A DNA stretch of 64,000 nucleotides from Candidatus Omnitrophota bacterium (lineage in GTDB: Bacteria; Omnitrophota; Gorgyraeia; Zapsychrales; JANLHA01). Below, one piece after another: positions 1 through 30,327 of this stretch. Position 1 is the stretch's first letter. Every line of letters begins with the position of its first letter. The DNA lies in the NCBI GenBank assembly GCA_963662715.1, contig OY759724.1, positions 2,074,662 to 2,138,661 of the forward strand, in the 5' to 3' direction. The notes beneath the pieces were generated by a model. That model was not told where the DNA came from and ran no database searches. It saw only the letters and a list, made by a program, of their open reading frames with translations. Both the position numbers and the translations under genes were made by a program.

Positions 1-558
1 ATTTTGTTCGTGGGCCGCCTGGAAAAGGAAAAAAATTTATTCGCTCTGCTTGATGCCATACGGCAGACGCCCCTGACTCTTGATATTGTTGGGGAGGGGC
101 GGCTAAAAGATGAGTTGACAAGCTATATCAAAGTCAATAAGATAAAAGCCCGTTTGCTCGGCCGTATGGCTAATAGCCGATTGCCGGAGACATATAACCG
201 TTATCCGGTTTATATTCTGCCTTCCTTTTGCGAAGGCATGCCCAAAACCTTGCTGGAGGCCATGTCCTGCGGGATGGCTGTTATCGGCAGTGATATTGAA
301 GGAATCCATAATATTATCAAACATAAGGAGTCGGGATACTTATGCGATACAACGACGGAATCCATTAGGGACGCTGTCCGGGAAGTTATGGGGGACCCGT
401 CTTTAAGGCAAAGATGTGGCTCCCGGGCAAGGCGGTATATAGAAGAATATCATAGCCTTGACTCGATTGTCCGACAGGAGAAAAAAATTTACGGTTTTGA
501 TAATGAAAATAATAAAAAAGATTTTGTTAGCACTCTTCAGCAGGAAACTTGTTGCTAA
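1..558 (+). CDS. glycosyltransferase family 1 (GT4-type), C-terminal part; 5' end lies outside the window
   Basis: ORF 4..558 runs in frame from the window edge. C-terminal GT1 motifs present (EGMPKTLLEAMSCGMAVIGSDIEG...KESGYLC). Confidence 0.8.
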   Translation: MLFVGRLEKEKNLFALLDAIRQTPLTLDIVGEGRLKDELTSYIKVNKIKARLLGRMANSRLPETYNRYPVYILPSFCEGMPKTLLEAMSCGMAVIGSDIEGIHNIIKHKESGYLCDTTTESIRDAVREVMGDPSLRQRCGSRARRYIEEYHSLDSIVRQEKKIYGFDNENNKKDFVSTLQQETCC

Positions 559-1252
559 AATCATTGTCCGCAAAGCCCTGCAATGTCATACGCTGGCCTA
601 TAAATATGCCGGGCGTTTCAGCTGTTTTCTCGAACCTGGGGGCCTGCATCCGAAACACCGGCTTATGAATTATCATCAGTGGTTTATTGACCATATGAAT
701 AAAGACTGGACTGTCCTGGATGTCGGATGCGGGAACGGGGCCCTTTCGTATGACTTGGCATGTTCCTGTCGGCAGGTTATCGCCATCGATAAGAATCCCT
801 TGAATATAGAAAAGGCCAGGAGAAATTTTGCCTTGGGGAATATCGAATATATTTTAGGTGAAGTCCCTGCCTGTTTTGATGACAGAGTTTTTGACGCTGT
901 TGTCCTTTCTAATGTCCTGGAACATATTGCCGACCGGAAGGTCTTTTTGACTGAGATTATGAAAAAAACGAAAAGAATTCTCATACGCGTTCCCATGATC
1001 GATCGTGACTGGATTACCTTGTATAAAAAGGAATGGGGCTTGGAATGGCGTCTGGACCCTACCCATGAAATAGAGTATACCTCTGATCTGCTGGTTGCTG
1101 AACTCAGAGCGGCTGGCTTGGATGTTCAGACATGCGACAGAAGATTTGGAGAGTTGTATTGTCTGGCTGTCCCACTAAGTGAATCAAGAAAGGATCCATC
1201 AGATGAGCGTCTCCCCATTGCGGCGGGTTGCGGTGATTATTCCCTGTTTTAA
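503..1252 (+). CDS. class I SAM-dependent methyltransferase
   Basis: ORF 458..1252 has the glycine-rich SAM-binding motif VLDVGCGNGALS. ATG at 503 is the first in-frame ATG in the overlap with the upstream GT1 tail (alternative ATG at 665). Confidence 0.7.
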   Translation: MKIIKKILLALFSRKLVAKIIVRKALQCHTLAYKYAGRFSCFLEPGGLHPKHRLMNYHQWFIDHMNKDWTVLDVGCGNGALSYDLACSCRQVIAIDKNPLNIEKARRNFALGNIEYILGEVPACFDDRVFDAVVLSNVLEHIADRKVFLTEIMKKTKRILIRVPMIDRDWITLYKKEWGLEWRLDPTHEIEYTSDLLVAELRAAGLDVQTCDRRFGELYCLAVPLSESRKDPSDERLPIAAGCGDYSLF

Positions 1253-1892
1253 CGAAGAATTGACGATAGAAAACGTTATCTGCGATTTTAAGGATAAAAT
1301 CCCGGAAGCGGATATTTTTGTCGTTGATAATTGTTCTTCCGACCGGACGGGGCAGGTCGCGGAAGCGGCCGGGGCTAAAGTGTTGCACGAACAGGCCCCG
1401 GGGAAGGGCAGTGTGATGCAGATCGCTTTCAATAAGATTTCTGCCGATGTCTTTGTGACGGTAGACGGGGATGCCACTTACAGCGCCTCTGACGTTAAAA
1501 AAATTCTTGCGCCTGTTATCGAAGGCCGGGCGGATATGGTTGTGGGCAACAGGCTGAACAATAGAAATGCCGAAGTCTGGACCCGTCATCGCGTCTGGGG
1601 GAACAGATGTATCTGTCGTTTCTTCAATCTGTTGTACGGGACAAAGTTTTCCGATATCCTTTCGGGGTACCGGGCTTTGTCCGCCGAAGCTGTTGAAGTG
1701 TTGTCTTGCCAGAGCAAAGGTTTTGAGATTGAGACGGAAATAACCGCAAAAGCTGTCATTCACAAACTTCGTGTACAAGAAGAACCTATCCATTATTATC
1801 AAAGACCGGAAGGCAGCAGTTCGAAATTAAGTGCATTCCAGGACGGGCTGAAAATTGTCGGTACAATGATCAGGCTTTGGCTTGCGGCCTAA
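1203..1892 (+). CDS. glycosyltransferase family 2, polyprenol-phosphate sugar transferase type (DPM1/GtrB/ArnC-like)
   Basis: ORF 1179..1892. N-terminal GT2 signature VAVIIPCFNEE...VVDNCSSDRT...VDGD. In-frame ATG at 1203 overlaps the upstream methyltransferase end. Confidence 0.8.
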   Translation: MSVSPLRRVAVIIPCFNEELTIENVICDFKDKIPEADIFVVDNCSSDRTGQVAEAAGAKVLHEQAPGKGSVMQIAFNKISADVFVTVDGDATYSASDVKKILAPVIEGRADMVVGNRLNNRNAEVWTRHRVWGNRCICRFFNLLYGTKFSDILSGYRALSAEAVEVLSCQSKGFEIETEITAKAVIHKLRVQEEPIHYYQRPEGSSSKLSAFQDGLKIVGTMIRLWLAA

Positions 1893-1934
1893 AATTTCAT
1901 ATAAAATGCAGAAGGAAAATAAAGAGAAAAAAGA

Positions 1935-3521: not shown

Positions 3522-3698
3522 TTCTTGAAACTCTGAATCCAGCCGGAATTTCTGTCGGCCGGCGGCGGATCTGAATTTTTCCGGAATCCCGAAGGCGGGT
3601 TTGCTGATGGCAGCACGAAAGACATCCGGTGTTTCATGCTTGTAAAATTTTAAGAATAATGTAATATACTTACTTAAATTGTTTTTACGAAGGAGAAA

Positions 3699-4739
3699 AT
3701 GTCCGTGAAGAAGGCTTTAATAACCGGGGTGACAGGACAGGACGGGAGTTATCTGGCTGAACTTTTGCTCGACCAGGGCTATGAGGTCTATGGCCTCGTG
3801 CGACAAGAAGCTTTGGAAGATCCTAATCACAGGATGGAGAGATTTTTACATATCAGGGACAAGCTGAAATTGTCCGCCGCGTCTTTGGAAAGTTTTCCCA
3901 GCATTTTTAAGATCATTCAGGACGTCAAACCGGATGAGATTTATCATTTGGCCGCGCAGAGTTTCGTTTCTTATAGTTTTGATGACAAATTTTCCCCGCT
4001 GTTGACCAATATCAGCGGAACACATTATGCGCTTTCTTCCTGCAAATCCATGCCCGTTCCGGCCAAGTTTTATTTCGCCGGTTCGAGTGAAATGTTCGGG
4101 AAAGTGGATGCAGAACCCCAAAATGAATCAACGCCTTTTCATCCCCGGTCTCCTTACGGAATTTCCAAGGTGGCGGGTTTCCATTTGACCCGCAACTACC
4201 GTGAGTCTTACGAAATGTTTGCGTGTAACGGCATCTTATTCAATCATGAGTCTCCGCGCAGAGGATTTGAATTTGTCACCCGTAAAATCACATCCGGCGT
4301 GGCTAAAATTAAGTTCGGGCTGGCAGACAGGATCAGTTTAGGCAACCTGAACGCAAAACGCGACTGGGGATTTGCCGGGGATTATGTTAAAGCCATGTGG
4401 CTCATGTTGCAGCAGGAGAAGCCGGATGATTATGTTATTGCTACCGGTCATGCGCATACGGTGCGCGAATTTGTTGAGCTTTCGTTCAAGACGGTTGATA
4501 TGGAGATCCTTTGGGAAGGGAAGGGCATACACGAAAAAGGCATTGATGAGAAAAGCGGACGCGTTTTAGTTGATGTGAACAAAGAATTCTTCCGGCCCGA
4601 CCAAGTCCATGTCCTGAGAGGGGATTATACAAAAGCAAAAAGAATTTTAAACTGGGAACCAACCATTCAGTTCCATGATCTTGTCCCGATGATGGTCGAG
4701 GCGGATTGCCGTTTGTTCTCCCAGGACAAGATGCGATAA
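3699..4739 (+). CDS. gmd: GDP-mannose 4,6-dehydratase (divergent paralog)
   Basis: N-terminal Rossmann motif ITGVTGQDGSYLAELLL. Conserved Gmd blocks [49 protein letters not shown] ribosome-binding site before the ATG at 3699. Confidence 0.9.
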   Translation: MSVKKALITGVTGQDGSYLAELLLDQGYEVYGLVRQEALEDPNHRMERFLHIRDKLKLSAASLESFPSIFKIIQDVKPDEIYHLAAQSFVSYSFDDKFSPLLTNISGTHYALSSCKSMPVPAKFYFAGSSEMFGKVDAEPQNESTPFHPRSPYGISKVAGFHLTRNYRESYEMFACNGILFNHESPRRGFEFVTRKITSGVAKIKFGLADRISLGNLNAKRDWGFAGDYVKAMWLMLQQEKPDDYVIATGHAHTVREFVELSFKTVDMEILWEGKGIHEKGIDEKSGRVLVDVNKEFFRPDQVHVLRGDYTKAKRILNWEPTIQFHDLVPMMVEADCRLFSQDKMR

Positions 4740-4947
4740 AGGTGCGCAAATCATAACATTCGTCCTTAGAGTTGTTGGGTGACACGGCCGTAGCTACTGT
4801 TCTGTCAGCCCCGCCGCTGTGTTTAATGTGATTTTTTTGCTTCTAAGATACCCCTGCCGCTGGCCGTGGTTTTCCCGGGCAGACCGGGGTGAAAACATTA
4901 AACTCGTATCCACGAAGGAATGAAGCCTCATCCGTTGACCCCGTAGG

Positions 4948-7401
4948 TTGCCATGGGGAAGGCAGAAGGGTTTATTTATTTTCTCCATGCAGAATAATAC
5001 ATGTCAAAAAAAGACGCGAAAGCAGAAAGGGCTGGCCGTTTTCTGTTTGGCTCTGGCGCTGTTCGTTTTGTTCGCTCCCGTGTTGACCGGGAAAAAAATT
5101 TTATTCCCATCCGACCTGCTGCACACGATGATCTCCCCTTATGCTGAGGGACGGTCTGTTCATGTTTACAATCATTTTTTGAATGACATTGTCGTTCAGT
5201 ATTTCCCGTACAAAAAATTAACTCAAACAGCCCTGCTGCAAGGGCGATGGGCTTACTGGAATCCTCTCATCCTCGGCGGGTATCCGCAATATGCTTTAAC
5301 GATGGCGGGAAATTTTGACGTGACGAACCTTCTGCTGGTTTTTATCCCTGACCCGCTTCAGGCCTATTTCGTTCAGATTCTTGCTCTGCTGTTCATCGCC
5401 GGCATCTCCATGTTCGCCTTGCTTCAATATTACCAGCTGCCTGTAAATGCCAGCCTGCTTGGTGCCGTCTGTTACATGCTGAACAGCATGTTTATTTGCA
5501 CGATCTTTTTCCCCTGGATTATGGGGGCGTTCTGCTGGATGCCGGCGGCGGTTTTATTCCTGGATAAAAGCCTGAGGGATAGGTTATTGCGGGACCAGGC
5601 GCTTTGCGCTTTATTGACAGGCTGTGCCATGATGGCCGCTTCTGTTCAGACGATGAGTTTTATTTTTTTCCTGACGTTTGTGTTTTCTGTTATGTACGGG
5701 TATGTCTTCGCCCGGACTTTCAGAGATGTCGCAACACTGGCTAAGATTTATTTGACGATACATGTCTGGGCCATAGGCCTGACAGCGGTCATGTTGTTGC
5801 CTACATTAGAACTTTTCTATTTTGACGCTATCCAAGGCGGACAATGGGGCAACGTAGGGCAGGGGGCCATCCCCTTTGTCAAGAGGCTGTGGGGAGTCGC
5901 CGGCGTGATTTCCTTTGCTTTCCCGCAATTGGCCGGGAGTGTCAGGGCCTTTGATCTAACAAAATTAGCATCCTCAACGATGATGTTTTATAACGGTTTT
6001 ATCGGCTTTCTTCCGCTGCTTTTCGGATTGTTAAGTGTCCGGAATATCAAGAAAGACAAAAGAATCATCATTTATATGACCATCACGTTGTTCGGCTTGC
6101 TTGTGCCGCTTGCTTCGCCGTTCTTAAAATATGTTTATCACCGTTTTTTTATTATTTATATTTTCGGCATGTCTGTCCTCTCAGCCTTTGGGCTGACATA
6201 TTATTTGCAATGGCAGGATAAGGATAAGATGGCTTCTTTTTTAAGAAAGGTCACAGCCCTTTTTGTGCTGGTGGTGCTTGTTCTGCTGGCCGGTCATGTG
6301 TTCATTCAGCTTTTTTATGATGACGTTCTTAAGCACGGCCGGAAATTTGTCGAGGCTCATCTGCACATGGCTAACTTGCTTGCCGGCAATCGGGGCTGGT
6401 ATTTGGGGCGCGTGGAGAAACTCTTGCAGCATTTCAACTTTTTTGCTCCGGCCATTTTCATCCCTGTCGCCACCATGGCCTTGGGCCTGGGAGCGCTTTG
6501 GGCCCACAGGGCCAACCGGCTGAAATCATCATTCACAGGCCTCATTTTATTTATCACAGTTTTTCAGCTTTTGTTCTTTGCCTGGAGCTGGCTGCCCATG
6601 GTCAGCCCTCAGGAATACCCTTTATATCCTGAGACGCAGTCGGTTAATTTTTTAAAAAAAGATCAAGATTTATACCGGGTTTTGATTTATAACAATAATA
6701 CGAATAGGAAGCCTGTTTATTCTCCGAATATTCTTTCTGTCTACGGCATCGAAACGATCAACGGTTATGAAAGCGTTGAGCCTAAAACGATAAGATATTT
6801 GATTCAGGGTATGGACCCTGCGGTTTTAGGCTTGTGCAACGTCAAATATATTATCACGCATGATGATCCTCCTTTACGGAGTCCTCATTTGCATTTAACA
6901 TGGGAGGGGGAAGGCCTGCATATATATGAGAATGAACTGTTCGTCCCGCGGGCTTTTTTCCGGTGTCAGCATGAAGTCAGATCCGAGACAGATATCCTTC
7001 AGGGCATTCGGACAGGCCGGTTGGATACCAGCCGGAAAGTCTTTTTCAGTGAAGGGTTGGGCGGGCAGGCCGGGGGGCAGCAAGGGGAGAATTTGCGAAA
7101 GCCTTTGATAAAATTAAGGCAATATTCCCCGGAAGAAGTTTTATATGAGGTCGAGACACAGGTGCCGGGCTATTTCGTGCTCAGTCAATCCTGGTATCCG
7201 GGGTGGACCTGTTATCTCGACGGCCGGCAGGAAGAAGTCAGAAAAGCGAATTATTGTATGCTGGCTGTCCGCGTCCCGGCCGGGAAACATAAAGTCCGGT
7301 TTGTATTCCGTCCGCGTATTTTTTATATAGGCCTTGCTGTAAGCTCGATATTTTTTCTGTTGATTCTTATTTCATTAAGGAAGAAAAGACATGCCTCTTA
7401 A
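4948..7401 (+). CDS. YfhO-family membrane protein (GT-C fold, probable glycosyltransferase/glycan-modifying enzyme)
   Basis: 817-aa polytopic membrane protein with YfhO-like blocks NDIVVQYFPYKK and GRWAYWNPLILGGYPQYA. Start is uncertain (ATG at 4948 or 4987). Confidence 0.6.
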   Translation: MPWGRQKGLFIFSMQNNTCQKKTRKQKGLAVFCLALALFVLFAPVLTGKKILFPSDLLHTMISPYAEGRSVHVYNHFLNDIVVQYFPYKKLTQTALLQGRWAYWNPLILGGYPQYALTMAGNFDVTNLLLVFIPDPLQAYFVQILALLFIAGISMFALLQYYQLPVNASLLGAVCYMLNSMFICTIFFPWIMGAFCWMPAAVLFLDKSLRDRLLRDQALCALLTGCAMMAASVQTMSFIFFLTFVFSVMYGYVFARTFRDVATLAKIYLTIHVWAIGLTAVMLLPTLELFYFDAIQGGQWGNVGQGAIPFVKRLWGVAGVISFAFPQLAGSVRAFDLTKLASSTMMFYNGFIGFLPLLFGLLSVRNIKKDKRIIIYMTITLFGLLVPLASPFLKYVYHRFFIIYIFGMSVLSAFGLTYYLQWQDKDKMASFLRKVTALFVLVVLVLLAGHVFIQLFYDDVLKHGRKFVEAHLHMANLLAGNRGWYLGRVEKLLQHFNFFAPAIFIPVATMALGLGALWAHRANRLKSSFTGLILFITVFQLLFFAWSWLPMVSPQEYPLYPETQSVNFLKKDQDLYRVLIYNNNTNRKPVYSPNILSVYGIETINGYESVEPKTIRYLIQGMDPAVLGLCNVKYIITHDDPPLRSPHLHLTWEGEGLHIYENELFVPRAFFRCQHEVRSETDILQGIRTGRLDTSRKVFFSEGLGGQAGGQQGENLRKPLIKLRQYSPEEVLYEVETQVPGYFVLSQSWYPGWTCYLDGRQEEVRKANYCMLAVRVPAGKHKVRFVFRPRIFYIGLAVSSIFFLLILISLRKKRHAS

Positions 7402-9322
7402 AGAATTGCCATTCGTCAGTATTCTGATGGCCACCAAAGATGAAAATCCGCAGTATTTGAAAGAAGCGGTCGATAGCATCTGCCGACAAAGCTATACAAA
7501 CTGGGAGTTTCTTATCTTGGATGACGGGTCTTCGACCCAGGATAATTATGATTGGCTTGTGCACAGATCGGAAGAAGACAAGAGAATTCATGTTTTCCGT
7601 GGCCCGGGCGTGGGGCTGGCCCGGGCGCTTAATTTTCTTATTCCCAAGGCGCAGGGAGAGTTTTTTGCCAGGATGGACAGTGACGACAGGGCTTATCCCG
7701 AAAGGATTATGAAGGAAGTTGAATATTTGATGCGGTATCCCAACACGGTCTTGGTGGGATCCTGGATCAGAATCATTGACGGGACCGGAGAACCGATTCA
7801 TCAGTCATGCCCTGCCGATTATTTCAGGCCTCCCTGGTCCAGGGCCGCGCATTCCGGCTGGTGCGGCCGGTTGGATGCTTTGAAGGCTATCGGCGGATAT
7901 TCTCCGGATTTCCCGGTGAGCCAGGATTATGACTGCTGGCTCCGTTTGCAGCGGCAGGGACGGGTGGGGGTGGTTGAGGAAATCCTTTTGGATTATCGGT
8001 GGGGCCGGATTAGCTCCGAACGCTCGGTTGAGCAGTTACAGTATTTCTGGATTGCGAATCAGATACACCGGGATAACTCAGGGATTCCCAAGGTCAGTGT
8101 CTCTTCGGTTAAGGCCAGGTTAAAGAAATATGATTTTTGGTACGGCAGGATGTTTCAATCCCAGTCTATCAGCCAGCAGGCTATGCGGCTTTGGCAACAA
8201 GGGGATTACCGCCAGTCTTTCAAGGAATTCCTGGCGTCTTTGAGAGTATTCCCTTTCAGCCTCCGGACATGGCTTTGTTCATTCCTCGTTTTGATATTTC
8301 ATAAATATCCTGCCCATATGACGCAATTTTTAAAATTGCGGGTGCTTTTGCCTCGCATACTGTATTTGAATCCCAAGCCGCCGTCTGCGGCTGTCTGTCT
8401 GCATTTTTCTGAGAATGGGGGCCGGGGTGGTTATCGTCTGGCTCTCGTTATTCCTACGGCCGACCGCCGGCAGGTGCTTCATCGATTTTTAAAAAGCGTT
8501 GAACCGCAAAAAAACTGCGTCTCCCAGATTATTATTGTTGACGGGGGCAGGAAACCGGTGGAGGACCTTGTCCGGGAATTTTCCCAGTTGCCCATTGATT
8601 ATGTCCGGGCCCCTTACCCGTGTCTGACCAGGCAGAAAAATCAGGGGATTGAGCATCTCCGTCCGGACATCGATCTTGTATGTTTTTTTGATGATGATAT
8701 TATCCTGGAAGAAAATGCCTTGGATAACATGATCCGTTTCTGGAAGAGCAGCGGGCAGGAGGTCGGCGGCGCGGCGTTTAACATTATCAATGTGGTCAAA
8801 AGGAAAACCTCTTTCATGAAGCGGATTTTTTTGACAGGAAGTGAAGCCAAGGGCCGGATTATGCGTTCCGGTTACGGGGCGATGCTTTCCCCCGTGGATG
8901 ACAGTATCTTTACAGACTGGATTTTCGGCGGAGCCACTGTCTGGCGGCGGGATATTTTTTCGACATATAAATTCGACGAGTGGTTTGAAGGCTACGGTTA
9001 TGGGGAGGACCTGGATTTCAGTTACAACGTGGGTAAAAAATATAAACTAGCGGTCATCTCCGAAGCCCGTGTGCAGCATATCAAAGACAATACAGAAGGT
9101 ATTGATTATGTCCTTTTTGGGAAAATGCAGGTTGTTAACCGGTATTATATTGTCAGAAAGTTTAAGGAATTTTCCACGCTGCTGTTTTTGTGGTCGTCCA
9201 GCGGACAGATGTTGGAAAATTTATATATGTTTCTGTTCAGAAGAAACAAAACCTACTTCTCCAGGCTTTTAGGCAATCTGTCCGGATTATGGCATATTAT
9301 CGTTCAGCCTCCCCGCGTATGA
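7391..9322 (+). CDS. two-domain (tandem GT2) glycosyltransferase
   Basis: N-terminal GT2 domain (VSILMATKDE...LILDDGSS...MDSDD) and second GT2 domain (LALVIPTADRR...IIIVDGG...FFDDDI). AAGGAAG ribosome-binding site upstream. Overlaps the upstream gene by 11 nt. Confidence 0.8.
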   Translation: MPLKELPFVSILMATKDENPQYLKEAVDSICRQSYTNWEFLILDDGSSTQDNYDWLVHRSEEDKRIHVFRGPGVGLARALNFLIPKAQGEFFARMDSDDRAYPERIMKEVEYLMRYPNTVLVGSWIRIIDGTGEPIHQSCPADYFRPPWSRAAHSGWCGRLDALKAIGGYSPDFPVSQDYDCWLRLQRQGRVGVVEEILLDYRWGRISSERSVEQLQYFWIANQIHRDNSGIPKVSVSSVKARLKKYDFWYGRMFQSQSISQQAMRLWQQGDYRQSFKEFLASLRVFPFSLRTWLCSFLVLIFHKYPAHMTQFLKLRVLLPRILYLNPKPPSAAVCLHFSENGGRGGYRLALVIPTADRRQVLHRFLKSVEPQKNCVSQIIIVDGGRKPVEDLVREFSQLPIDYVRAPYPCLTRQKNQGIEHLRPDIDLVCFFDDDIILEENALDNMIRFWKSSGQEVGGAAFNIINVVKRKTSFMKRIFLTGSEAKGRIMRSGYGAMLSPVDDSIFTDWIFGGATVWRRDIFSTYKFDEWFEGYGYGEDLDFSYNVGKKYKLAVISEARVQHIKDNTEGIDYVLFGKMQVVNRYYIVRKFKEFSTLLFLWSSSGQMLENLYMFLFRRNKTYFSRLLGNLSGLWHIIVQPPRV

Positions 9323-9348
9323 ACACCGGGCTATTTATGAGATGATGT

Positions 9349-10473
9349 ATGAGTCGAGTTATCCTGTGTTTGCTACATCTTCCTCCACCGCACATCGGGC
9401 CGTCAGTCATCAATGAATCGGTCATCCAGAGCCTTTCTTTGAACCCGGAATTCGAATGTGATGTTTTCCCGATCAATACGTCGAATCATATACAGCAGAT
9501 CAACCGGTTTTCATTAAAGAAAGTTTCTGTCCTTTTCACAATGAGCTTTAAGCTGATCAGGAGGTTGCTGAACAGAAAGTATCATTTGGTTTATATGTCC
9601 CTGACGCCTACGGGAATCGGATTCTTAAAAGATTTTATCCTGGTGATGATCTTGAAAATGCGGGGTGTTTGCCGGCTTTACCATCTGCATGGCAAAGGGG
9701 TTCATGAGAAACAGAACGTATTCATGACATGGCTTTACCGCCTGTGTTTTAAAGGAAGTCATGTCATTCTGCTGTCGGAAAGCCTTTATCCGGATATCAA
9801 GTGTTATGTTCCTCGTGAGCAGGTTTCGGTCATCCCTAACGGCGTCCCCGAGGATATTGATGCGAAAGCCTGGGAGAAAATAAGAGAGCGGCGGAGACAG
9901 CCTCATGTCTTTCATGTCCTTTTTTTAGCGAACCTGGTGAGAAGCAAGGGGATCTTCACGGCGTTGGAAGCGGTGCGTCAACTGCAGCAGAAGGAGCTGA
10001 AGTTCCAATTTTCTGTTGTCGGTGCGGATTTTGATGTCACACAGGCCGAACTGGTCGAATGGGTGGAGCAAAATGACCTGCAGGAAACGGTTTTTGTTTT
10101 AGGATACAGAAGCGGGGCGCAAAAACGGGAGATATTTGAAAGAGCGGATATTTTTATTTATCCGACACAAAAGGATACTTTTCCTCTGGTCCTTTTGGAA
10201 GCTATGCAGTACGGTTTGCCGGTCGTTTCGACTTTTGAGGGGGCTATCCCTGATATTGTTGACGCCAATCAGACCGGGTTCTTGGTCGCTCCCGGATCAG
10301 CAACGGATCTGGCGGAGAAGATTGAATTTTTAATGAAGGATACGGAATGGCGGAGCAACATGGGGGAACAGGCACGCGCCAAATTCGTCCGGGAGTATAC
10401 ATTTTTTATCTTTGAACATCGGCTGAGCGCTGTTTTTAAAAAGGTGTCTGATGATCGTGCAGCGCTATCTTAA
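9349..10473 (+). CDS. glycosyltransferase family 1 (GT4)
   Basis: C-terminal GT1 signature YPTQKDTFPLVLLEAMQYGLPVVSTFEGAIPDIV...GFLV. Confidence 0.85.
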   Translation: MSRVILCLLHLPPPHIGPSVINESVIQSLSLNPEFECDVFPINTSNHIQQINRFSLKKVSVLFTMSFKLIRRLLNRKYHLVYMSLTPTGIGFLKDFILVMILKMRGVCRLYHLHGKGVHEKQNVFMTWLYRLCFKGSHVILLSESLYPDIKCYVPREQVSVIPNGVPEDIDAKAWEKIRERRRQPHVFHVLFLANLVRSKGIFTALEAVRQLQQKELKFQFSVVGADFDVTQAELVEWVEQNDLQETVFVLGYRSGAQKREIFERADIFIYPTQKDTFPLVLLEAMQYGLPVVSTFEGAIPDIVDANQTGFLVAPGSATDLAEKIEFLMKDTEWRSNMGEQARAKFVREYTFFIFEHRLSAVFKKVSDDRAALS

Positions 10474-10482
10474 GGAGATCTC

Positions 10483-12384: not shown

Positions 12385-12465
12385 GAAAACAGGGAATTTT
12401 TTGGCCCCCGAACGCCAGGAAGCTCAGTGTTCCTGAAAAATAATTGCGAGGAGGTCTTTTGAGAT

Positions 12466-14610: not shown

Positions 14611-15805
14611 CATTTATGAGTCTTTGGTTCGTTTAAAGGATTATTGTCAAAAGGCCGGTTATCAAGGATGGGATCCTTTTGACGGGTTGAATTCTGCCTT
14701 TTTTCAGGCATCTTTTTTAAGAAATTCCCCTTTGTTTCGGATGTGCTGGATTCAGTTCTTTAAGCGAAGCCCGGTTAACCTGCGGTCGGTCTTTCGTGTC
14801 CCCAAAGGATTCAATCCTAAAGGCATAGCTTTGTTCTTGCGCGGTTATGTCTGTCTGGCCCGGGCTTTTCAGGATGAAGCGGATTTCGCGGTTATTCGTT
14901 CCCTCGCGGAGACATTGCGTAATTCTGTTTCGGCCGGATACTCCGGGTCTTGCTGGGGATATAACTTCGACTGGCAGTCCCGGGCTTTTTTTGTCCCCCG
15001 CGGAACCCCGAATGTGATCGTCTCGACTTTTGCGGGACATGCTTTACTGGATGTTTATGAACTTCAGGGGGAAAAAAAATTCATGCAGATGGCGGTGTCT
15101 GTCAGCGATTTTATCCGGCAGGATTTAAACCGCCAGGAGGATCAGCACGGCGGAATGTGTTTCTCCTACACGCCTTTAGATCACTCACGGATTTTCAACG
15201 CATCTCTTTTGGCGTCGGCTTTTTTAGCCCGGGTTTACCGTTTAACCCGCGACCCCGCGCTTTTTATTGACGCCCAGAGGTCCGTGTCTTTTTGCTGCCG
15301 GCAGCAAAATGCCGACGGCAGCTGGTTTTACGGTATGAACCCGAATCAGCGATGGATCGACAGCTTCCATACGGCGTATAATCTGGAGGCCCTTTTTCAA
15401 TATCAGGATTGGACGGGAGATGATCAGTTTCAGGGATTTTTTGAAAAGGGTTTTTCTTATTATGCGAAAAATTTCTTTACCGAAGAAGGGGTCCCTAAAT
15501 ATTATCACAATCGTATTTATCCTGTTGATGTTCATTCCACGGCCGGCCTGATTTCTCTTATGCTGATATCCGGCCGTCATGCCCGATATGCTGATCTGAA
15601 TAAAAATGTATTGAAGTGGACAATTCGGCATATGCAGTCTAAAATAGGATACTTTTATTACCAAATTCACAAATGGTGCAAGATTGACATCCCGTATATC
15701 CGCTGGACGCAGGCATGGATGTTTTATGCGTTGAGCTTTTACGTGTATTATCTGAAAAAGAACCGTTTGGCTTTTTCATCCGAAGGAGATTGTCAGGAAG
15801 AATGA
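14603..15805 (+). CDS. hypothetical protein (400 aa), possibly a polysaccharide-modifying enzyme; function unknown
   Basis: Clean ORF overlapping both neighbours (8 nt upstream, ATGA downstream). No signal peptide or TM. Trp/Tyr/Phe-rich. No family recognised by eye. Confidence 0.55.
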   Translation: MNDIYESLVRLKDYCQKAGYQGWDPFDGLNSAFFQASFLRNSPLFRMCWIQFFKRSPVNLRSVFRVPKGFNPKGIALFLRGYVCLARAFQDEADFAVIRSLAETLRNSVSAGYSGSCWGYNFDWQSRAFFVPRGTPNVIVSTFAGHALLDVYELQGEKKFMQMAVSVSDFIRQDLNRQEDQHGGMCFSYTPLDHSRIFNASLLASAFLARVYRLTRDPALFIDAQRSVSFCCRQQNADGSWFYGMNPNQRWIDSFHTAYNLEALFQYQDWTGDDQFQGFFEKGFSYYAKNFFTEEGVPKYYHNRIYPVDVHSTAGLISLMLISGRHARYADLNKNVLKWTIRHMQSKIGYFYYQIHKWCKIDIPYIRWTQAWMFYALSFYVYYLKKNRLAFSSEGDCQEE

Positions 15806-16911
15806 CACGAAGAAAAAAAGTCGTTTTTGTCGCCGGGGCCAGACCGAATTTCATGAAAATTGCCTGTCTGCTTAAGGAATGCCGCAAGTATAAGGCGATC
15901 CGGGCTATTGTTGTCCATTCCGGCCAGCATTATGATAACGAGATGTCGGAACAGTTTTTTAAAGATTTGGACATTGCTCCTCCCCGGTATTTTCTGGGGG
16001 TCGGGTCAGGGAGCCATGCCGAGCAGACAGGTCGTGTGATGGTGGCCTTCGAAAAGATCTGCCAAAAGGAGCGTCCCGATTACGTTGTGGTCGTCGGTGA
16101 TGTCAACTCCACGGTCGCGGCCTGCCTGGCCGCCAAGAAATGTCATATCCGCGTAGCCCATATCGAAGCAGGGTTGAGAAGTTTTGATATGGCGATGCCG
16201 GAAGAGATCAACCGCATGGTGACCGACAGTATTTCCGATGACCTCTTTGTCACGGAACAGAGCGGTGTCACCCATTTACGGAAAGAGGGGCATGCTGCGA
16301 AGAAAATTCATTTTGTCGGAAACACCATGATAGACAGCCTTATCCTGGCGATGAAAAAGATTCAACGTATGGACCCGCGGTCCTGGACGAGTTATCCTTT
16401 GCAGGAACAGTTGTCTTCTTATGGCTTGCTGACTCTGCACCGGCCCAGCAATGTTGACAGCAAAACGCAGCTTAAGCGATTGCTGGCTGTGGTTGATCAA
16501 GTGGCCCAGGAGATTCCCATCATATTCCCTGCGCATCCCCGGACCCGTAAAAGCATCAGAGAGTTTAAAGTTAAATTATCAAAGAATATTCATCTTACCC
16601 ATCCGTTAGGCTATTTGGAGTTTATCTTTTTATGCCAGAAAGCCGGATTCATTTTGACGGACAGCGGGGGGATTCAGGAAGAGACGACCTTTTTGAAAGT
16701 CCCCTGTTTCACTCTGAGGGCCAACACGGAACGTCCGGTCACTCTTGAAAAAGGGACGAACATCCTTGTCGGAAATAACATAGAGCAAATTCCCCGCCTC
16801 GTTCATCAGGTCCTCCGCGGTCAGTCCCGGGCGGGCCAGACGCCCCCTTTATGGGACGGGAGGGCCTCTCAGCGGATCATAAAAATTTTGGTGCGGAAAT
16901 TAATGATATGA
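15802..16911 (+). CDS. wecB: UDP-N-acetylglucosamine 2-epimerase (non-hydrolysing)
   Basis: ATG at 15802 shares ATGA with the upstream stop. Conserved blocks VAGARPNFMKIA, HSGQHYD, HIEAGLRSFD, FILTDSGGIQEE. Confidence 0.9.
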   Translation: MTRRKKVVFVAGARPNFMKIACLLKECRKYKAIRAIVVHSGQHYDNEMSEQFFKDLDIAPPRYFLGVGSGSHAEQTGRVMVAFEKICQKERPDYVVVVGDVNSTVAACLAAKKCHIRVAHIEAGLRSFDMAMPEEINRMVTDSISDDLFVTEQSGVTHLRKEGHAAKKIHFVGNTMIDSLILAMKKIQRMDPRSWTSYPLQEQLSSYGLLTLHRPSNVDSKTQLKRLLAVVDQVAQEIPIIFPAHPRTRKSIREFKVKLSKNIHLTHPLGYLEFIFLCQKAGFILTDSGGIQEETTFLKVPCFTLRANTERPVTLEKGTNILVGNNIEQIPRLVHQVLRGQSRAGQTPPLWDGRASQRIIKILVRKLMI

Positions 16912-17681
16912 TAAGAGAGAGACGGATTAATATCCTGGACTGCCCCATTGATAACCTGAGCCGTAAAGAAACGGTGGCTCTGATTGAAGATATGATCCGT
17001 CAACGGCTCTCTTGCCAGCATGTCGTTATTAATGTTGACAAGCTTTTAAAAGTGCGGCGGGACCGGAAACTTCATGATATTATTTCTCAGTGCGACATCA
17101 TTAATGCTGACGGCATGCCGATTGTCTGGGTTTCCCGTTGGCTGGGCCAGCCTTTGCCGGAAAGGGTGGCCGGTATTGATCTGATGCATGATCTGGTGTC
17201 GTTGTCTGCGCAAAAGAACTATAGGATCTTTTTCCTGGGAGCCCGGCAGGATGTTGTGCAAGCCGTTGTCGGGAAATATCGGATGCTGTACCCGGACATT
17301 AACATTGTGGGGTTCCGGAACGGATACTGGCCGGAATCGGAAGAGGAAGACGTGGTTAACGAAATCAGAGCCGCGGCCCCGGATATCCTTTTTGTCGCGA
17401 TGAGCTCCCCGAAAAAGGAAATGTTTTTAAACAGATACCGGCAGAAACTTCGTGTCCCTTTTGTTATGGGCGTCGGAGGCAGCTTTGACGTGGTGGCCGG
17501 ATATACGCAACGGGCTCCCCTTTGGATGCAACGGCGTGGTCTGGAATGGCTGTTCCGTCTTATGCAGGAACCGAAACGCATGTGGAGACGATATTTGATC
17601 GGTAACACGCAATTTGTTTTTATCGTGGCCCGCGAGATGTTTGGTCCCAAGGCCAGAAGAAACAGCCCGCAGCATCAGTAA
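16908..17681 (+). CDS. WecB/TagA/CpsF family glycosyltransferase (GT26, N-acetylmannosaminyl(uronic acid) transferase-like)
   Basis: GT26 blocks GIDLMHDLV, YRIFFLGA, FVAMSSPKKE, GVGGSFD, RRGLEWLFRL. ATGA overlap with the wecB stop. Confidence 0.85.
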   Translation: MIRERRINILDCPIDNLSRKETVALIEDMIRQRLSCQHVVINVDKLLKVRRDRKLHDIISQCDIINADGMPIVWVSRWLGQPLPERVAGIDLMHDLVSLSAQKNYRIFFLGARQDVVQAVVGKYRMLYPDINIVGFRNGYWPESEEEDVVNEIRAAAPDILFVAMSSPKKEMFLNRYRQKLRVPFVMGVGGSFDVVAGYTQRAPLWMQRRGLEWLFRLMQEPKRMWRRYLIGNTQFVFIVAREMFGPKARRNSPQHQ

Positions 17682-17740
17682 GAATTTTATCCTGTTGCGC
17701 CCACGCGCTATTTTATTATCCCTCTACAATATAAAATAAG

Positions 17741-17810
17741 CCTGCCGTTCCTTCCCGTTCCGGATGGGGAAAAACTCCGGAACAGGAAAAATTATTGGCA
17801 GGTGTTTTGA
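17741..17810 (+). terminator. nested GC-rich hairpin followed by a U-rich tract after the wecG-like gene
   Basis: CCTGCC..GTTCCGGA-loop-TCCGGAAC..GGCAGG then TGTTTTG. The U-tract is weak. Confidence 0.3.
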
Positions 17811-17833
17811 AAAATGCTGTATGGATGTATAAT
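17807..17833 (+). promoter_or_regulatory. candidate sigma70 promoter for the sugar-transferase operon
   Basis: TTGAAA -35 at 17807..17812, TATAAT -10 at 17828..17833 (15-nt spacer, TG just upstream) in an AT-rich 230-nt intergenic region. Confidence 0.3.
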
Positions 17834-17913
17834 TGATATTGCGAAATTAAAAATGAATAGGTAAAATGTAACATTATTAAAATTTATCATTCTAATACTA
17901 ATAATCTTTTTGT

Positions 17914-19323
17914 ATGATCACTTCCATCAGAAAAATCTATCCTCTTTATATCTTCATTGATTTTGTCTTGATCTGGAGCAGTTTTATCATTCCGTATTTT
18001 TTAAAATACAACGCCATTACGGATATTTTCCGGGTGATCACGCTGCCCAACCTTGATCAGTATATTTTTATCTTCGTTCTTTGGACGATATTTATCGTCA
18101 GTTTTTTTCAGGGAAAAGGTCTTTACGCCACGGACCGGAGCCTGCCCATCCCCAAAGAAATGGCGCGGGTGGCCTTAAATCTTTTTTATGTCAGCGTGAT
18201 CATGGCCGCCATCATATTTTTCGCTCAGTATAAATTTTTTTCCCGGAAGGTCTTCCTGGAGAACTTTTTGTCTTTATGTTTTTTGCTGGGAGGGTGGAGG
18301 GTCATCAAGAGGCTTATTCTGCGCAAGCTGATCGCCGGCGGCTTTCATAATATTAATGTCTTGATTGTCGGGGCCGGAAAAGTCGGGGGCGTCGTTCTGG
18401 AGGAAATCCGGCAGAATCCGCAGTGGGGATTCCATATTGTCGGATTCCTGGACGATCGTAAAGAGGAAATCGACGGATTCCCTGTCCTCGGGAAGGTGCG
18501 GGACTTTCCCTCGGTGGCCCGGAAACACTTTGTCGATGAAATTGTTGTGACAATCCCGTCTGTGCGGGAACTTATCGGGGATATTATCAAGAAGGCCAAA
18601 ACCATGCATCTCGGGGTGAGAATCGTTCCGGAGAATTTTGAAGGGCCGCTGTCTTTTATCGAAATCAATTATATGGGCATCATTCCCTTGCTGACATATA
18701 AACAGCGGAAACATCATCCTACGGAGTTTGCCCTTAAACGGCTGTTTGATATCATGCTGTCATTCGTGTTTATTGTTTTGTCATCCCCTTTATTTGTTGT
18801 TATCTCCCTTTTGATTAAATGGGATTCTCCGGGGCCGGTTTTTTATGTCCAACAGAGGGTCGGATTAAAAGGGAAGCGTTTTAATCTGTTTAAATTCCGT
18901 TCCATGTTCGATGGCGCTGAGCAAATGAAGTCCAGACTGTTAAATAATAATGAAGTGAAAGACGGTGTTATTTTTAAAATGAAAAAGGATCCCCGGGTCA
19001 CCCGTTTCGGGAAGTTGTTGCGGAAGTACAGCCTGGATGAATTGCCGCAGCTTTTTAATGTTTTTAAAGGGGACATGAGCCTGGTCGGCCCCCGGCCGCC
19101 GACCCCGGATGAGGTTGAACAATATCAACAGCAGGATTTGCAGCGCTTGTCCATCCGGCCGGGTGTTACGTGCATTTCTCAGGTCCGGGGCCGAAGCGAC
19201 CTGTCGTTTAAAAGATGGGTTAAATGGGATTTGTGGTATATCAATAACTGGTCTTTTGGTTTAGATATGCAGATTCTGCTGTGGACCGTGCCCGCCGTCA
19301 TAAAAGGAAAAGGAGCTTACTGA
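17914..19323 (+). CDS. exopolysaccharide/O-antigen initiating polyprenyl-phosphate glycosyl-1-phosphate transferase (bacterial sugar transferase family, WbaP/EpsB-like)
   Basis: N-terminal TM helices, NAD-binding-like middle domain, C-terminal sugar-transferase blocks KRLFDI, SPGPVFYVQQRVG, FNLFKFRSM, DELPQLFNVFKGDMSLVGPRP. Confidence 0.9.
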   Translation: MITSIRKIYPLYIFIDFVLIWSSFIIPYFLKYNAITDIFRVITLPNLDQYIFIFVLWTIFIVSFFQGKGLYATDRSLPIPKEMARVALNLFYVSVIMAAIIFFAQYKFFSRKVFLENFLSLCFLLGGWRVIKRLILRKLIAGGFHNINVLIVGAGKVGGVVLEEIRQNPQWGFHIVGFLDDRKEEIDGFPVLGKVRDFPSVARKHFVDEIVVTIPSVRELIGDIIKKAKTMHLGVRIVPENFEGPLSFIEINYMGIIPLLTYKQRKHHPTEFALKRLFDIMLSFVFIVLSSPLFVVISLLIKWDSPGPVFYVQQRVGLKGKRFNLFKFRSMFDGAEQMKSRLLNNNEVKDGVIFKMKKDPRVTRFGKLLRKYSLDELPQLFNVFKGDMSLVGPRPPTPDEVEQYQQQDLQRLSIRPGVTCISQVRGRSDLSFKRWVKWDLWYINNWSFGLDMQILLWTVPAVIKGKGAY

Positions 19324-19335
19324 TGCTGGAAAGGC

Positions 19336-20637: not shown

Positions 20638-20653
20638 AGAGGGAGGCTCATCC

Positions 20654-21667
20654 ATGAAAAAGAGAAAAGTGGCCCTGATCACCGGTATTACGGGACAGGA
20701 TGGCGCTTATTTGTCGGAATTATTGCTTAAAAAGAAATATGATGTTTATGGACTGATCAGACGGTCCAGCACGTTCAATACAACACGCATTGATCATCTC
20801 TATCAGGATCCTCATGAAAAGGATGTTCAATTGCGGCTGCTTTACGGGGATCTCAATGACGCGAGTTCTCTGAACCGGATTATCAGGACTATAAAACCGG
20901 ACGAGATATATAATCTTGGAGCGCAGAGTCATGTCAAGGTCAGTTTTGAGATCCCGGAATACACGGGAGAGATTGTCGGGCTGGGGACGACGCGTCTGCT
21001 GGAAGCCATACGGGATTCAGGTATTAAAGCGAAATTTTATCAGGCTTCAAGCAGTGAAATGTTTGGTAAAGTTCTCGAGATCCCTCAATCTGAAAAGACC
21101 CCGTTTTATCCCCGCAGCCCTTATGCGGCGGCGAAAGTCTACTCTTATTGGATGACCGTCAATTACCGGGAAGCTTATAATATTTTCGCCTGCAACGGTA
21201 TTCTTTTTAACCATGAATCTCCCCGGAGAGGGGAGACCTTCGTGACCCGGAAAATTACCATGGCCCTGGCCCGGATTAAACACGGAGTGCAGGATAAGCT
21301 TTTTTTAGGGAATCTGGACGCTAAAAGAGACTGGGGTTTTGCCGGGGATTATGTTGAAGCCATGTGGTTGATGTTGCAGCAGAAGACCCCGGCTGATTAT
21401 GTCATCGCGACCGGCCAGACGCATTCTGTGCGGGAATTTCTTTTAGAAGCGTTCTCCTATTTAAAGATGGATTGGAAAAAACATGTCAGGATCGATAAGC
21501 GCTATTTCCGGCCAACGGAAGTAGATCTCCTCATAGGCAACAGTTCAAAAGCCCGCAGAAAATTGAAATGGAAACCCCGAGTGAACTTTAAGCAGTTAGT
21601 CCGTATGATGGTTGATGCTGACCTGGAACTAGTTGAACGTCAGCTTTACGGCCAGAAGAAATCTTAA
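20654..21667 (+). CDS. gmd: GDP-mannose 4,6-dehydratase (canonical paralog)
   Basis: GGAGG ribosome-binding site then ATG at 20654. Blocks [58 protein letters not shown]. Confidence 0.95.
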
Positions 21668-21685
21668 GATCCTTTAGAGATCATC

Positions 21686-23155
21686 ATGATGAATAACTTT
21701 AGGAACTGGACTGAAAAAGGCATCGTCTACTCTTTCTATGCCTTGATTTATTTTTTGCCTATCTCTACGGCTTTAGTCGAAATTTTCTCTACCTGTATTA
21801 TTTTGTGTTATTTGTCGAGGATGGGGGTTCTCCTTCTGAATCGGGGCGCCGTGGCCGATGGGGCCGGTGGTCCGGTGCGGGATTCTTCTCCATCGGAGAA
21901 GATGTTTTTCGGAGCCTGTGTCCTGTTCCTGGCCGCGAATATCCTGTCCACCCTGACGAGTCAATATCCCTGGGTGAGCTTTAAAGCCCTGTTTTTTAAG
22001 CTGAGTCAGGGGCTGGTGCTGATGCATGCGTTTTCTTTGGTGATGCTGACGCAAAAACGGATAAAAATATTTATAACCGTTTTTTTGGTTTCGGCAACCT
22101 TATCGTCTGTTAATGCCATTTTCCAATCTTTTTCCGGTCATGGTTTCGTGAGAGGTTTTTCGCTGGTGGAGGAGGCCCGGGTTACGTCTTCCTTCAAACA
22201 TCCCAATGATTTTGGCGGATATCTTATTGTTGTCAGTTCGGTTGTCCTGTCTTTGATTGTCACAGGGATTTATGAAGCCTTTTTTTATAAAAAACAGCAG
22301 GAATCGGTCGGCGGGGCTGCTTCGACCCCGGTCTTTGTCTGGATCTGGATCGGGAGTCTGTTGATCCTGACTTTATGGAGTTTGGGGCTGACTTTTTCCC
22401 GGGGAGCCTGGCTGGGATTTATTATCGCGGTGTTATGCCTGGCTTTTTACAGGAAGAAAGTTTTTTTCTTGTTGATAGGGCTCTGTGTGCTTTTTCTCCT
22501 GATCTTCCATCCTCAGTTATACAAAGTCCGGGGAAGGAATTTAAGAGTTTATAACCCCAAAGGCGTTGTTATAAAACCTAAAGACGTAAAGAAAATTATG
22601 GCGCCGGATCAGGAGCCTCCGCCTTCGGCACAGGACCGGTCTTTGAAGAATGACCTGGAATCCCAAGGGCATAAAAATTATATTCAGGCCGTTTTTAAGA
22701 AAGTATTAACGGTTTTTGAGGTTCTTGCCGGAAAAAGCATGGGCAGGTTTGGTTTTTGGAAAGAAGCCATGCTTATTGTCAAAGACTACCCTTTGTGCGG
22801 GGCCGGGCTGAACACCTATTCCAAGGTGGCTCCCCGGTACAAGATTAACTGGGGCGGGTATCCGCATAACTGTTACCTGCACATGGCAGCTGAAACCGGT
22901 GTGTTAGGTTTGGGCCTCTTTTTAGGCCTTGTTGTGATTTTTTTGTGTCACGCATGGACGAAAATTCATTTGGTGACGCCGCCGTATTTATTGTCCGTCT
23001 CCCTGGGAGGCGTGGCCGGGTTGTCAGGCTTTTTGGTGCAATGTTTTTTCGATACCAACCTTTATTCTGTGCAGTTAAACAGTCTTTTTTGGATTTTCAT
23101 CGGGTTGGTCTTAGCGGCTATAAGGACCGGCCGGCCGTACGGTTCAGAGTCATGA
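21686..23155 (+). CDS. O-antigen ligase / Wzy-like membrane protein (paralog 3)
   Basis: Polytopic. Wzy_C motif GAGLNTYSKV...YPHNCYLHMAAETGVLGLGLF. Confidence 0.75.
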   Translation: MMNNFRNWTEKGIVYSFYALIYFLPISTALVEIFSTCIILCYLSRMGVLLLNRGAVADGAGGPVRDSSPSEKMFFGACVLFLAANILSTLTSQYPWVSFKALFFKLSQGLVLMHAFSLVMLTQKRIKIFITVFLVSATLSSVNAIFQSFSGHGFVRGFSLVEEARVTSSFKHPNDFGGYLIVVSSVVLSLIVTGIYEAFFYKKQQESVGGAASTPVFVWIWIGSLLILTLWSLGLTFSRGAWLGFIIAVLCLAFYRKKVFFLLIGLCVLFLLIFHPQLYKVRGRNLRVYNPKGVVIKPKDVKKIMAPDQEPPPSAQDRSLKNDLESQGHKNYIQAVFKKVLTVFEVLAGKSMGRFGFWKEAMLIVKDYPLCGAGLNTYSKVAPRYKINWGGYPHNCYLHMAAETGVLGLGLFLGLVVIFLCHAWTKIHLVTPPYLLSVSLGGVAGLSGFLVQCFFDTNLYSVQLNSLFWIFIGLVLAAIRTGRPYGSES

Positions 23156-30326: not shown

Positions 30327-30327
30327 T

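Follow-up and report, generated by a model that had tools for sequence, protein, structure and literature searches.

The lipopolysaccharide (LPS) pathway of Helicobacter pylori works without Wzy. The pathway is reported to couple an ATP-binding cassette (ABC) flippase, Wzk, to WaaL (PMC2841628). Systems of extracytoplasmic glycosylation that are composed of a GT-A glycosyltransferase, a flippase and a GT-C enzyme of the YfhO type have been reviewed (PMC8035078), and some GDP-mannose 4,6-dehydratases (GMDs) have been reported, for Pseudomonas aeruginosa, to reduce also their 4-keto product to GDP-D-rhamnose (cited in PMC3584063). The window analyzed here, 64,000 nucleotides of contig OY759724.1 of a Candidatus Omnitrophota bacterium (positions 2,074,662 to 2,138,661), begins with a gene array (window positions 1-23155) that encodes WaaL-fold, YfhO-type and GMD-family proteins. 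With a probability of roughly 0.65, this array represents the 3' (downstream) half of a conserved Omnitrophota envelope glycan locus that extends over ~55 kb or more. The product would probably be an LPS/O-antigen-like or other surface glycan. Every component belongs to a known family and the whole fits known pathway types.

Conservation of the array and probable upstream export genes

The open reading frame (ORF) listing revealed a single plus-strand array of 17 genes without any break, with intergenic gaps of -91 to +232 bp, and Pfam and NCBIfam scans provided family assignments for 17/17 of them (Table 1). The 13 genes named in the original prediction were all recovered by these scans on the plus strand where it had placed them, and its description of a polysaccharide locus with a YfhO-type GT-C protein was borne out. 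Four further genes, located between 10.5 and 16.9 kb, were missing from its inventory; they code for AsnB, a fusion of zinc-dependent alcohol dehydrogenase (Zn-ADH) and Gfo/Idh/MocA domains, a 400-aa protein and WecB.

Nearly all named homologs of the window proteins come from metagenome-assembled genomes of Candidatus Omnitrophota. The array was gene-for-gene syntenic in four relatives (loci L001/L006, L002, L003 and L004/L005/L008, the last being the closest) at identities of 52-90%, the relatives retrieved by a scan of genome contigs being 52-53% identical, and in the relatives it always ended at pgk-tpi-secG. In two deep relatives the order is kept in blocks: L009 retains the module GT4-methyltransferase-GT2-Wzy1-YfhO-tandem GT2-GT4-AsnB-oxidoreductase at 34% Wzy1 identity, and L011 retains Wzy2-gmd-Wzy3-pgk-tpi-secG-opp at 37% Wzy3 identity, so that Wzy-like proteins of no more than 34-38% identity still lie in syntenic surroundings. 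For the second dehydratase, gmd2, identity amounts to 88-90% in close relatives and to 82% in a deep one, on a par with pgk, while the initiating polyprenyl-phosphate glycosylphosphotransferase (PGT) is 84% identical in close relatives and 47% in L011. Because gmd2 and the PGT are conserved, gmd2 as much as pgk, the data point to a core, vertically inherited glycan locus rather than a hypervariable serotype cassette.

The survey for export and pathway genes compared all plus-strand ORFs of at least 100 aa in 1-27.4 kb with Pfam; the remaining ORFs of at least 400 aa were assigned to other functions, and the ORFs at 27423-31263, outside the Pfam scan, were recognized by synteny as opp permease and ATPase genes. 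The scanned ORFs of the 64-kb window included no gene for Wzx/MOP, Wzz, Wza/Wzc, Wzm/Wzt, Fcl, Rmd or Per, in agreement with the earlier claim that no flippase, exporter or 4-reductase is in view, and neither wzx, fcl nor rmd appeared in the ~55 kb of the locus viewed in relatives (L001-L003 scanned in part). The array does not qualify as a Wzx/Wzy-dependent locus, since a PGT and Wzy-like proteins are present but Wzx and Wzz are missing from the window and not evident in the ~55 kb of the relatives.

A HepA/MsbA-type ABC half-transporter with fused transmembrane and nucleotide-binding domains is encoded in the same array in two relatives (L001, 1097-2983; L008, 10001-11893). In the closest relative (L008; ENA ERZ21869602, ctg94213l) its gene lies ~9 kb upstream of the site that corresponds to window position 1. 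The protein of the relatives stayed under the cut-offs of the HepA, MsbA-related and MsbA models, with scores of 380-395 bits. The source genome carries a 69%-identical ortholog (P0185) on the 3,360,633-bp contig where the window's proteins are recorded at 100% identity. With this half-transporter upstream in relatives and its ortholog located on the source contig, the exporter gene probably lies just upstream of the window, and its absence would be an effect of the window edge.

Outward from the array, the closest relative carries methyltransferases, two soluble Pfam-less genes, two radical S-adenosylmethionine (SAM) enzymes and a polysaccharide deacetylase, and further out a GT9 heptosyltransferase-like gene, an FkbM methyltransferase, the ABC half-transporter, a GT2 gene and a nonulosonic-acid module. 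GT9 heptosyltransferase-like genes adjoin the ABC half-transporter in the relatives. A hidden Wzx among the Pfam-less upstream genes of L008 was ruled out by a hydropathy scan of 20 kb around the ABC transporter, as each of these genes encodes at most one hydrophobic segment. This module, which comprises two NeuB-like genes and genes for a CMP-sugar synthetase, PIG-L and an acetyltransferase, lies within positions 1-10000 and 13786-18156 of L008 together with the deacetylase gene and the two radical-SAM genes, one of which encodes a B12-binding enzyme; these upstream genes hint at unusual sugar modifications.

As in the Wzk/WaaL pathway of H. pylori and in the PglK system of Campylobacter jejuni, a glycan predicted to be built on a polyprenyl carrier goes together with an MsbA/PglK-like ABC half-transporter (in the relatives' arrays) and WaaL-fold enzymes, with no Wzx or Wzz. 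Contrary to H. pylori, the initiating enzyme is a large Bac_transf PGT and not WecA, and three WaaL-fold proteins are encoded instead of one. A further difference from both systems is that the ABC protein stays under the PglK, MsbA and HepA cut-offs and is known from the arrays of relatives, not from the source locus.

WaaL-fold proteins, a possible YfhO branch and two dehydratases

The original prediction counted three Wzy_C-domain proteins. Three membrane proteins of the WaaL/Wzy fold are indeed encoded, of which Wzy2 and Wzy3 exceed the PF04932 gathering threshold of 31.7 bits, whereas Wzy1 remains below it (18.7 bits). Wzy2 and Wzy3 can be aligned over their full length (25% identity, E = 7e-25), Wzy3 having an insertion of ~60 residues in the periplasmic loop, and are old paralogs. 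In BLAST comparisons Wzy1 has just the PHNxY motif in common with the other two. A profile-profile alignment (hhalign) of 43 Wzy1 homologs (A1) with 47 Wzy3 homologs (A2) gave a probability of 92% and E = 6.8e-7 over the C-terminal catalytic-loop region. Sequence searches of the PDB with each of the three proteins, and with the Wzy1 family profile, returned no matches, while the Wzy3 family profile matched WaaL (7tpg, E = 5e-4). AlphaFold models were confident (pLDDT, the predicted local distance difference test, 83.5 for Wzy1 and 87.2 for Wzy3; AF2), and Foldseek aligned the Wzy3 model with WaaL at E = 3.7e-6 and a template modelling (TM) score of 0.61.

An Arg / Arg(x3)Trp / His-Asn set was located in Wzy1 (R200, R391, H441), Wzy2 (R226, R288, H329) and Wzy3 (R239, R354, H394), the last three residues being invariant. 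Profile-profile homology, a WaaL-like fold and the conserved periplasmic Arg and His make Wzy1 a remote member of the Wzy_C/WaaL superfamily, and the WaaL fold is common to all three proteins. As the Arg/Arg/His set is kept in all of them, they are probably active enzymes. Their identity to WaaL of Cupriavidus metallidurans (7tpg/7tpj) amounts to only ~13-14%, and the trio stands apart within the PF04932 superfamily by the sub-threshold Wzy1, by the presence of three copies in one array and by the frequent fusion of Wzy3 relatives to tetratricopeptide repeats (TPRs). Many Omnitrophota homologs of Wzy3 carry long C-terminal TPR arrays (e.g., P0083, P0084, P0091, P0103 and P0139) and some carry PF13385 (P0078, P0082); in Omnitrophota the Wzy_C family seems to have undergone strong expansion and diversification. 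The name IctB, "bicarbonate transporter", was dropped for Wzy2 and Wzy3, since their scores of 54-59 bits against a cut-off of 366 reflect the shared Wzy_C domain.

The 5' part of the array resembles the CsbB-GtcA-YfhO, GtrB-GtrA-GtrX and Streptococcus mutans PgfS-PgfM1 systems, in that a GT2 of the polyprenyl-phosphate-sugar-synthase type is accompanied by a YfhO GT-C protein, here conserved two genes apart in all relatives viewed. The small GT2 reached 217 bits on TIGR04182 AglJ (cut-off 325) and 78 bits on PpgS, both under cut-off, and its hydropathy profile showed no hydrophobic segment, so that, unlike CsbB and GtrB, it has no C-terminal membrane anchor. The YfhO protein belongs to the YfhO GT-C group by its score and its multi-spanning topology (~13 or more hydrophobic segments), with the PF09586 match restricted to the C-terminal 80 residues (profile positions 756-835). 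Its syntenic orthologs are 54-56% identical, and 41% in L009. Other differences from the GT-A/flippase/GT-C systems are a presumably diderm host, the WaaL-fold gene between GT2 and YfhO, and the absence of a GtrA-family flippase from the window.

Both GMD-family genes that had been proposed were recovered. The two proteins are full-length and score above the TIGR01472 cut-off of 415 bits, gmd1 marginally (419.4), with residues S/T130, E131, Y153 and K157 (Ser/Thr-Glu plus YxxxK) invariant in an alignment of the family (A3); GMD activity is predicted for both. The best PDB match was the Aquifex GMD 2z1m for gmd1 (393 bits) and Arabidopsis MUR1 1n7g for gmd2 (488 bits). Neither qualifies as Rmd, with 117-122 bits to Rmd 2pk3 against the 393-488 bits to the GMD structures. 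The two proteins are 50% identical, and a recent duplication as their source was ruled out by this value together with the different best structures; gmd1 and gmd2 belong to different GMD lineages. The gmd2 ORF opens at GTG 20615, and the ATG at 20654 agrees with the ortholog starts.

The divergence earlier ascribed to gmd1 (no HYGDL block, QSFV in place of QSHV) was seen in A3, yet QSFV is read likewise in the Aquifex GMD 2z1m. In place of YGDLxD the protein has AASLESF, a change common to its 75-76% identical ortholog in L004, and at the RRSS position it reads VRQEA where this ortholog reads VRRVA. Both altered positions (YGDL and RRSS) lie on what we take, from the structure of short-chain dehydrogenases/reductases, to be the cofactor side. 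Among the five relatives that cover the position, gmd1 is present in one, the closest (L004), and absent from L001, L002, L003 and L009. Together with the flanking gaps of 177 and 208 bp, the largest in the 5' part of the array, this identifies gmd1 as an accessory gene.

Compared with known GDP-D-rhamnose/GDP-6-deoxyhexose pathways, the window enzymes share with the gmd-rmd pair of the P. aeruginosa common polysaccharide antigen (CPA), with the Aquifex GMD and with MUR1 a full-length GMD-family sequence and the catalytic residues, and methyltransferases and GT4 enzymes accompany gmd as they do in the CPA locus. In contrast to that locus, no rmd, fcl, per or wzm/wzt gene lies near the window gmds. 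In gmd1 the RRSS motif is lost, as is the Asp that is conserved in the YGDL block. The absence of a 4-reductase may mean that a GMD is bifunctional or that the reductase gene is unlinked.

Proposed assembly route and competing explanations

The locus is best explained, at the confidence given above for the array, as an ordinary large envelope-glycan locus encoding a polyprenyl-linked envelope glycan pathway. Following the functions of the families, the Bac_transf PGT would start the glycan on undecaprenyl phosphate at the cytoplasmic face, a ManNAc-type (N-acetylmannosamine-type) sugar would be added through WecB and WecG, and the chain would be extended by the GT4 and GT2 enzymes. AsnB, the fused oxidoreductase and the 400-aa protein may tailor nucleotide sugars, gmd2 would provide a GDP-6-deoxyhexose precursor, and the methyltransferases may O-methylate the sugars. 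Flipping of the lipid-linked glycan would fall to a HepA/MsbA/PglK-type ABC half-transporter, whose gene would be located upstream of the window as it is in the relatives, or alternatively to an unlinked Wzx. At the periplasmic face the three WaaL-fold enzymes would polymerize the glycan and/or ligate it to one or more acceptors. In a separate branch the small GT2 may form a polyprenyl-phosphate sugar that the YfhO GT-C protein would use to decorate the exported glycan, and gmd1 would serve as an accessory second dehydratase in only a part of the clade.

Several points weigh against this explanation. The position of the ABC transporter at the source locus is inferred from relatives, and because the protein passes no HepA, MsbA or PglK cut-off, it might simply serve in the flipping of lipid A, and the flippase of the O-unit would then have to be another protein. 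The ~55 kb of the relatives contained none of the enzymes that could act on the GMD product (4-reductase, epimerase or aminotransferase), and no GtrA-type flippase for the YfhO branch was found in the window. Lipid A-core is no more than a candidate acceptor. The division of labor in which Wzy1 acts as polymerase and Wzy2 and Wzy3 as ligases is the most likely one but a guess, since sequence and fold do not tell polymerase, ligase and O-oligosaccharyltransferase apart.

A classical Wzx/Wzy/Wzz O-antigen or exopolysaccharide (EPS) locus, whose wzx, wzz and GDP-sugar reductase genes would be located at other sites of the 3.36-Mb genome, the upstream ABC protein being no more than MsbA, is a tentative and rather unlikely alternative. 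It would agree with the large Bac_transf PGT and the Wzy-like proteins, with the near-equal scores of the ABC protein on the MsbA, MsbA-related and HepA models and with the GT9 gene adjoining the ABC gene, which recalls msbA in LPS core regions; the scans nevertheless returned no MOP/Wzx-type gene in the window, no Wzx-type family among the called genes of L004-L006 (L001-L003 scanned in part) and no multi-spanning membrane protein among the Pfam-unassigned genes in the 20 kb around the L008 transporter. The acceptor side raises another question, as one or more of the WaaL-fold proteins could be protein O-oligosaccharyltransferases (O-OTases) like PglL, TfpO or H. pylori WaaL, so that surface or S-layer proteins would be glycosylated instead of, or besides, lipid A-core. 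The glycosylation of H. pylori adhesins is assumed to depend on WaaL. For the outer membrane adhesins of that species a general system of protein glycosylation is reported (PMC9553153), the WaaL fold is common to O-OTases, and the TPR modules of many Omnitrophota Wzy3 homologs, being protein-binding, hint at protein partners; the locus is, moreover, core and conserved, unlike typical variable O-antigen loci. On the other hand, 0/3 of the window proteins have a TPR domain, the locus contains no gene for a candidate acceptor protein, and the GT9 and MsbA-like neighbors in relatives point to LPS. The original prediction had raised protein O-glycosylation as a function of the trio and had asked for typing against exosortase-associated ligases as well. 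Typing with hidden Markov models (HMMs) placed none of the three in the PglL class: neither PglL_A (PF15864) nor Wzy_C_2 (PF11846) was reported at E up to 0.01 for the three proteins and up to 10 for Wzy1. We regard an O-OTase role as unlikely.

The same typing did not make an exosortase-associated ligase of any of the three, and an exosortase/PEP-CTERM-associated EPS system with Wzy3 as PEP_O_lig-type ligase is hardly credible. The matches in its favor are weak and far under the curated cut-offs: PEP_O_lig_1 (TIGR03097) is matched by Wzy3 alone, with 36.4 bits against 188.1 and none for Wzy1 or Wzy2, AsnB reaches 485 bits on the XrtA-type model TIGR03108 against 817, and the PGT 222 bits on TIGR03013 against 393. 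This system is effectively refuted at the HMM level, and neither the window nor the ~55 kb of the relatives contains a gene for an exosortase, EpsH or a PEP-CTERM protein. The missing downstream enzyme would be accounted for if gmd1 were neofunctionalized, as an Rmd-like 4-keto reductase, an enzyme using NAD instead of NADP, or an enzyme acting on another GDP-sugar. The altered cofactor-side motifs (RRSS to RQEA/RVAL, and YGDL to AASL), kept in the 75-76% identical ortholog, the barely reached TIGR01472 cut-off and the bifunctionality of some GMDs (PMC3584063) would be in line with this. The intact catalytic Ser/Thr-Glu and YxxxK and the 393 bits to a GMD structure against 122 bits to Rmd 2pk3 speak against it, and since 4/5 relatives covering the position lack both gmd1 and any reductase, gmd1 is not a general solution to the missing reductase; such a change of function is very doubtful. 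Finally, parts of these ideas can be joined in a hybrid route: a core, lineage-wide glycan would be flipped by the ABC half-transporter with no Wzx or Wzz and would be polymerized, ligated and decorated by the WaaL-fold trio and YfhO, its acceptor possibly being protein or another non-lipid-A molecule, with the Wzy_C-gmd-Wzy_C trio beside pgk as the fixed core and gmd1 as a GMD that could have an altered cofactor and a new activity. Taken as a whole, this combination appears improbable, and the ordinary polyprenyl-linked envelope glycan locus remains the preferred explanation.

Gene inventory, neighboring sequence and significance

Table 1. Genes of the envelope glycan array and the promoter-like sequence at its 3' end (window coordinates).
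Feature	Position	Strand	Evidence or remark
GT4-type glycosyltransferase (Glycos_transf_1), C-terminal part, cut by the window edge	4..558	+	PF00534 E = 1.4e-29
SAM-dependent methyltransferase	503..1252	+	Methyltransf_11/25/31; syntenic orthologs 64-69% identical
Small soluble GT2, polyprenyl-phosphate sugar synthase type (AglJ/DPM1/PpgS-like)	1203..1892	+	PF00535
Wzy1, remote WaaL/Wzy-fold membrane protein, 528 aa	1935..3521	+	Candidate repeat-unit polymerase
gmd1, accessory Aquifex-type GMD family protein	3699..4739	+	PF16363 412 bits; TIGR01472 419.4 bits
YfhO-family GT-C membrane glycosyltransferase, 817 aa	4948..7401	+	PF09586 45.9 bits (cut-off 28.5)
Tandem two-domain GT2 glycosyltransferase	7391..9322	+	Two PF00535 stretches; orthologs 73-77% identical
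GT4-type glycosyltransferase (Glycos_transf_1)	9349..10473	+	PF00534 E = 7e-37
Glutamine-dependent AsnB-type amidotransferase	10483..12384	+	Asn_synthase and GATase_7; TIGR01536 473 bits, over cut-off
Fused Zn-ADH and Gfo/Idh/MocA oxidoreductase	12466..14610	+	ADH_zinc_N and GFO_IDH_MocA; orthologs 69-74% identical
Conserved 400-aa soluble protein without family	14603..15805	+	Syntenic orthologs 59-61% identical
WecB, non-hydrolysing UDP-GlcNAc 2-epimerase	~15805..16911	+	PF02350 356 bits; TIGR00236 322 bits (cut-off 210)
WecG/TagA/CpsF (GT26) ManNAc(A)-type transferase	16851/16908..17681	+	PF03808 222 bits; TIGR00696 175 bits (cut-off 69)
PGT, large Bac_transf (WbaP/WcaJ type), initiating enzyme	17914..19323	+	PF02397 227 bits; TIGR03025 425 bits (cut-off 296)
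Wzy2, Wzy_C (O-antigen ligase/polymerase family) membrane protein, 433 aa	19336..20637	+	PF04932 74.7 bits
gmd2, core GMD	20654..21667	+	TIGR01472 543.4 bits
Wzy3, Wzy_C membrane protein, 489 aa, enlarged periplasmic loop	21686..23155	+	PF04932 73.6 bits
Sigma-70 consensus TTGACA-16-TATAAT	23175-23202	+	12/12 match; consensus match only

The truncated GT4 at the window edge is 70-73% identical to full 372-aa orthologs in L001, L002, L004 and L008. The methyltransferase that follows it is, judged by its context, a probable sugar O-methyltransferase. AsnB has a probable role in uronic-acid or sugar amidation within the glycan pathway, and the fused oxidoreductase is predicted to oxidize or reduce nucleotide sugars. 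In L009 a gene of the 23S_rRNA_IVP family (four-helix bundle) lies between the two (16832-17182). The conserved 400-aa protein had sub-threshold Pfam similarity only to the alpha/alpha-toroid families GH88/GH127, with neither an NCBIfam match nor a PDB sequence match, and the label "heparinase II/III-like" was dropped on these grounds; a literature search on the cassette around this gene found nothing. The wecB ORF opens at 15715, and its true start is probably further downstream, with 15805 being the nominal first in-frame codon past the end of the upstream gene (orthologs, 350-368 aa). In L005 the PGT and pgk are each called as two split genes (6227-7637, 363 + 108 aa, and 11566-12751, 115 + 281 aa), which are probably frameshift errors of long-read assembly and not real pseudogenes.

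The sigma-70 consensus, located 54 nt 5' of the pgk start, is the sole 12/12 match in 20 kb and, as a sequence match, would mark the 3' boundary of the array. Downstream follow pgk, tpi and the opp transporter, and then housekeeping genes, namely dnaG, rpoD, the RNase P RNA, lepA and aromatic amino-acid genes. A 779-aa protein encoded at 31390-33729 has ~8 N-terminal hydrophobic segments, a soluble middle part and C-terminal TPR repeats; its membrane part had no Pfam match, L006 encodes a 780-aa TPR protein at the same place after the opp operon, and the product may be another GT-C-like envelope enzyme. The adjacent 408-aa protein (33793-35019) combines NTP_transferase and left-handed beta-helix domains, as in GlgC or sugar-1-phosphate nucleotidyltransferases, and could supply activated sugars from a position 10 kb beyond the locus. 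Ordinary housekeeping RNAs were identified at 48049-48254 and 49480-49904: tRNA-Met (CAT), tRNA-Val (CAC) and a class A bacterial RNase P RNA (164 bits). Nearly all genes of 1-64000 are on the plus strand and the GC skew is positive in each 2-kb bin, which is consistent with a long leading-strand stretch of one replichore.

The Omnitrophota have not been cultured; they are often ultra-small and may depend on a host, and we know of no experimental work on their envelope. The points of interest of the present locus are the deep conservation of the Wzy_C-gmd-Wzy_C trio beside pgk, the apparent absence of Wzx and Wzz and the altered cofactor-side motifs of gmd1. For genome annotation, the locus illustrates how a cluster with "no flippase in view" may owe this to the edge of a 64-kb window. 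The three WaaL-fold proteins, the two GMD types and the YfhO/GT2 pair constitute a concrete gene set for heterologous testing. Because the locus is conserved at a fixed chromosomal position, with gmd2 as conserved as glycolytic enzymes, it is a good candidate for encoding the main surface glycan of this lineage.

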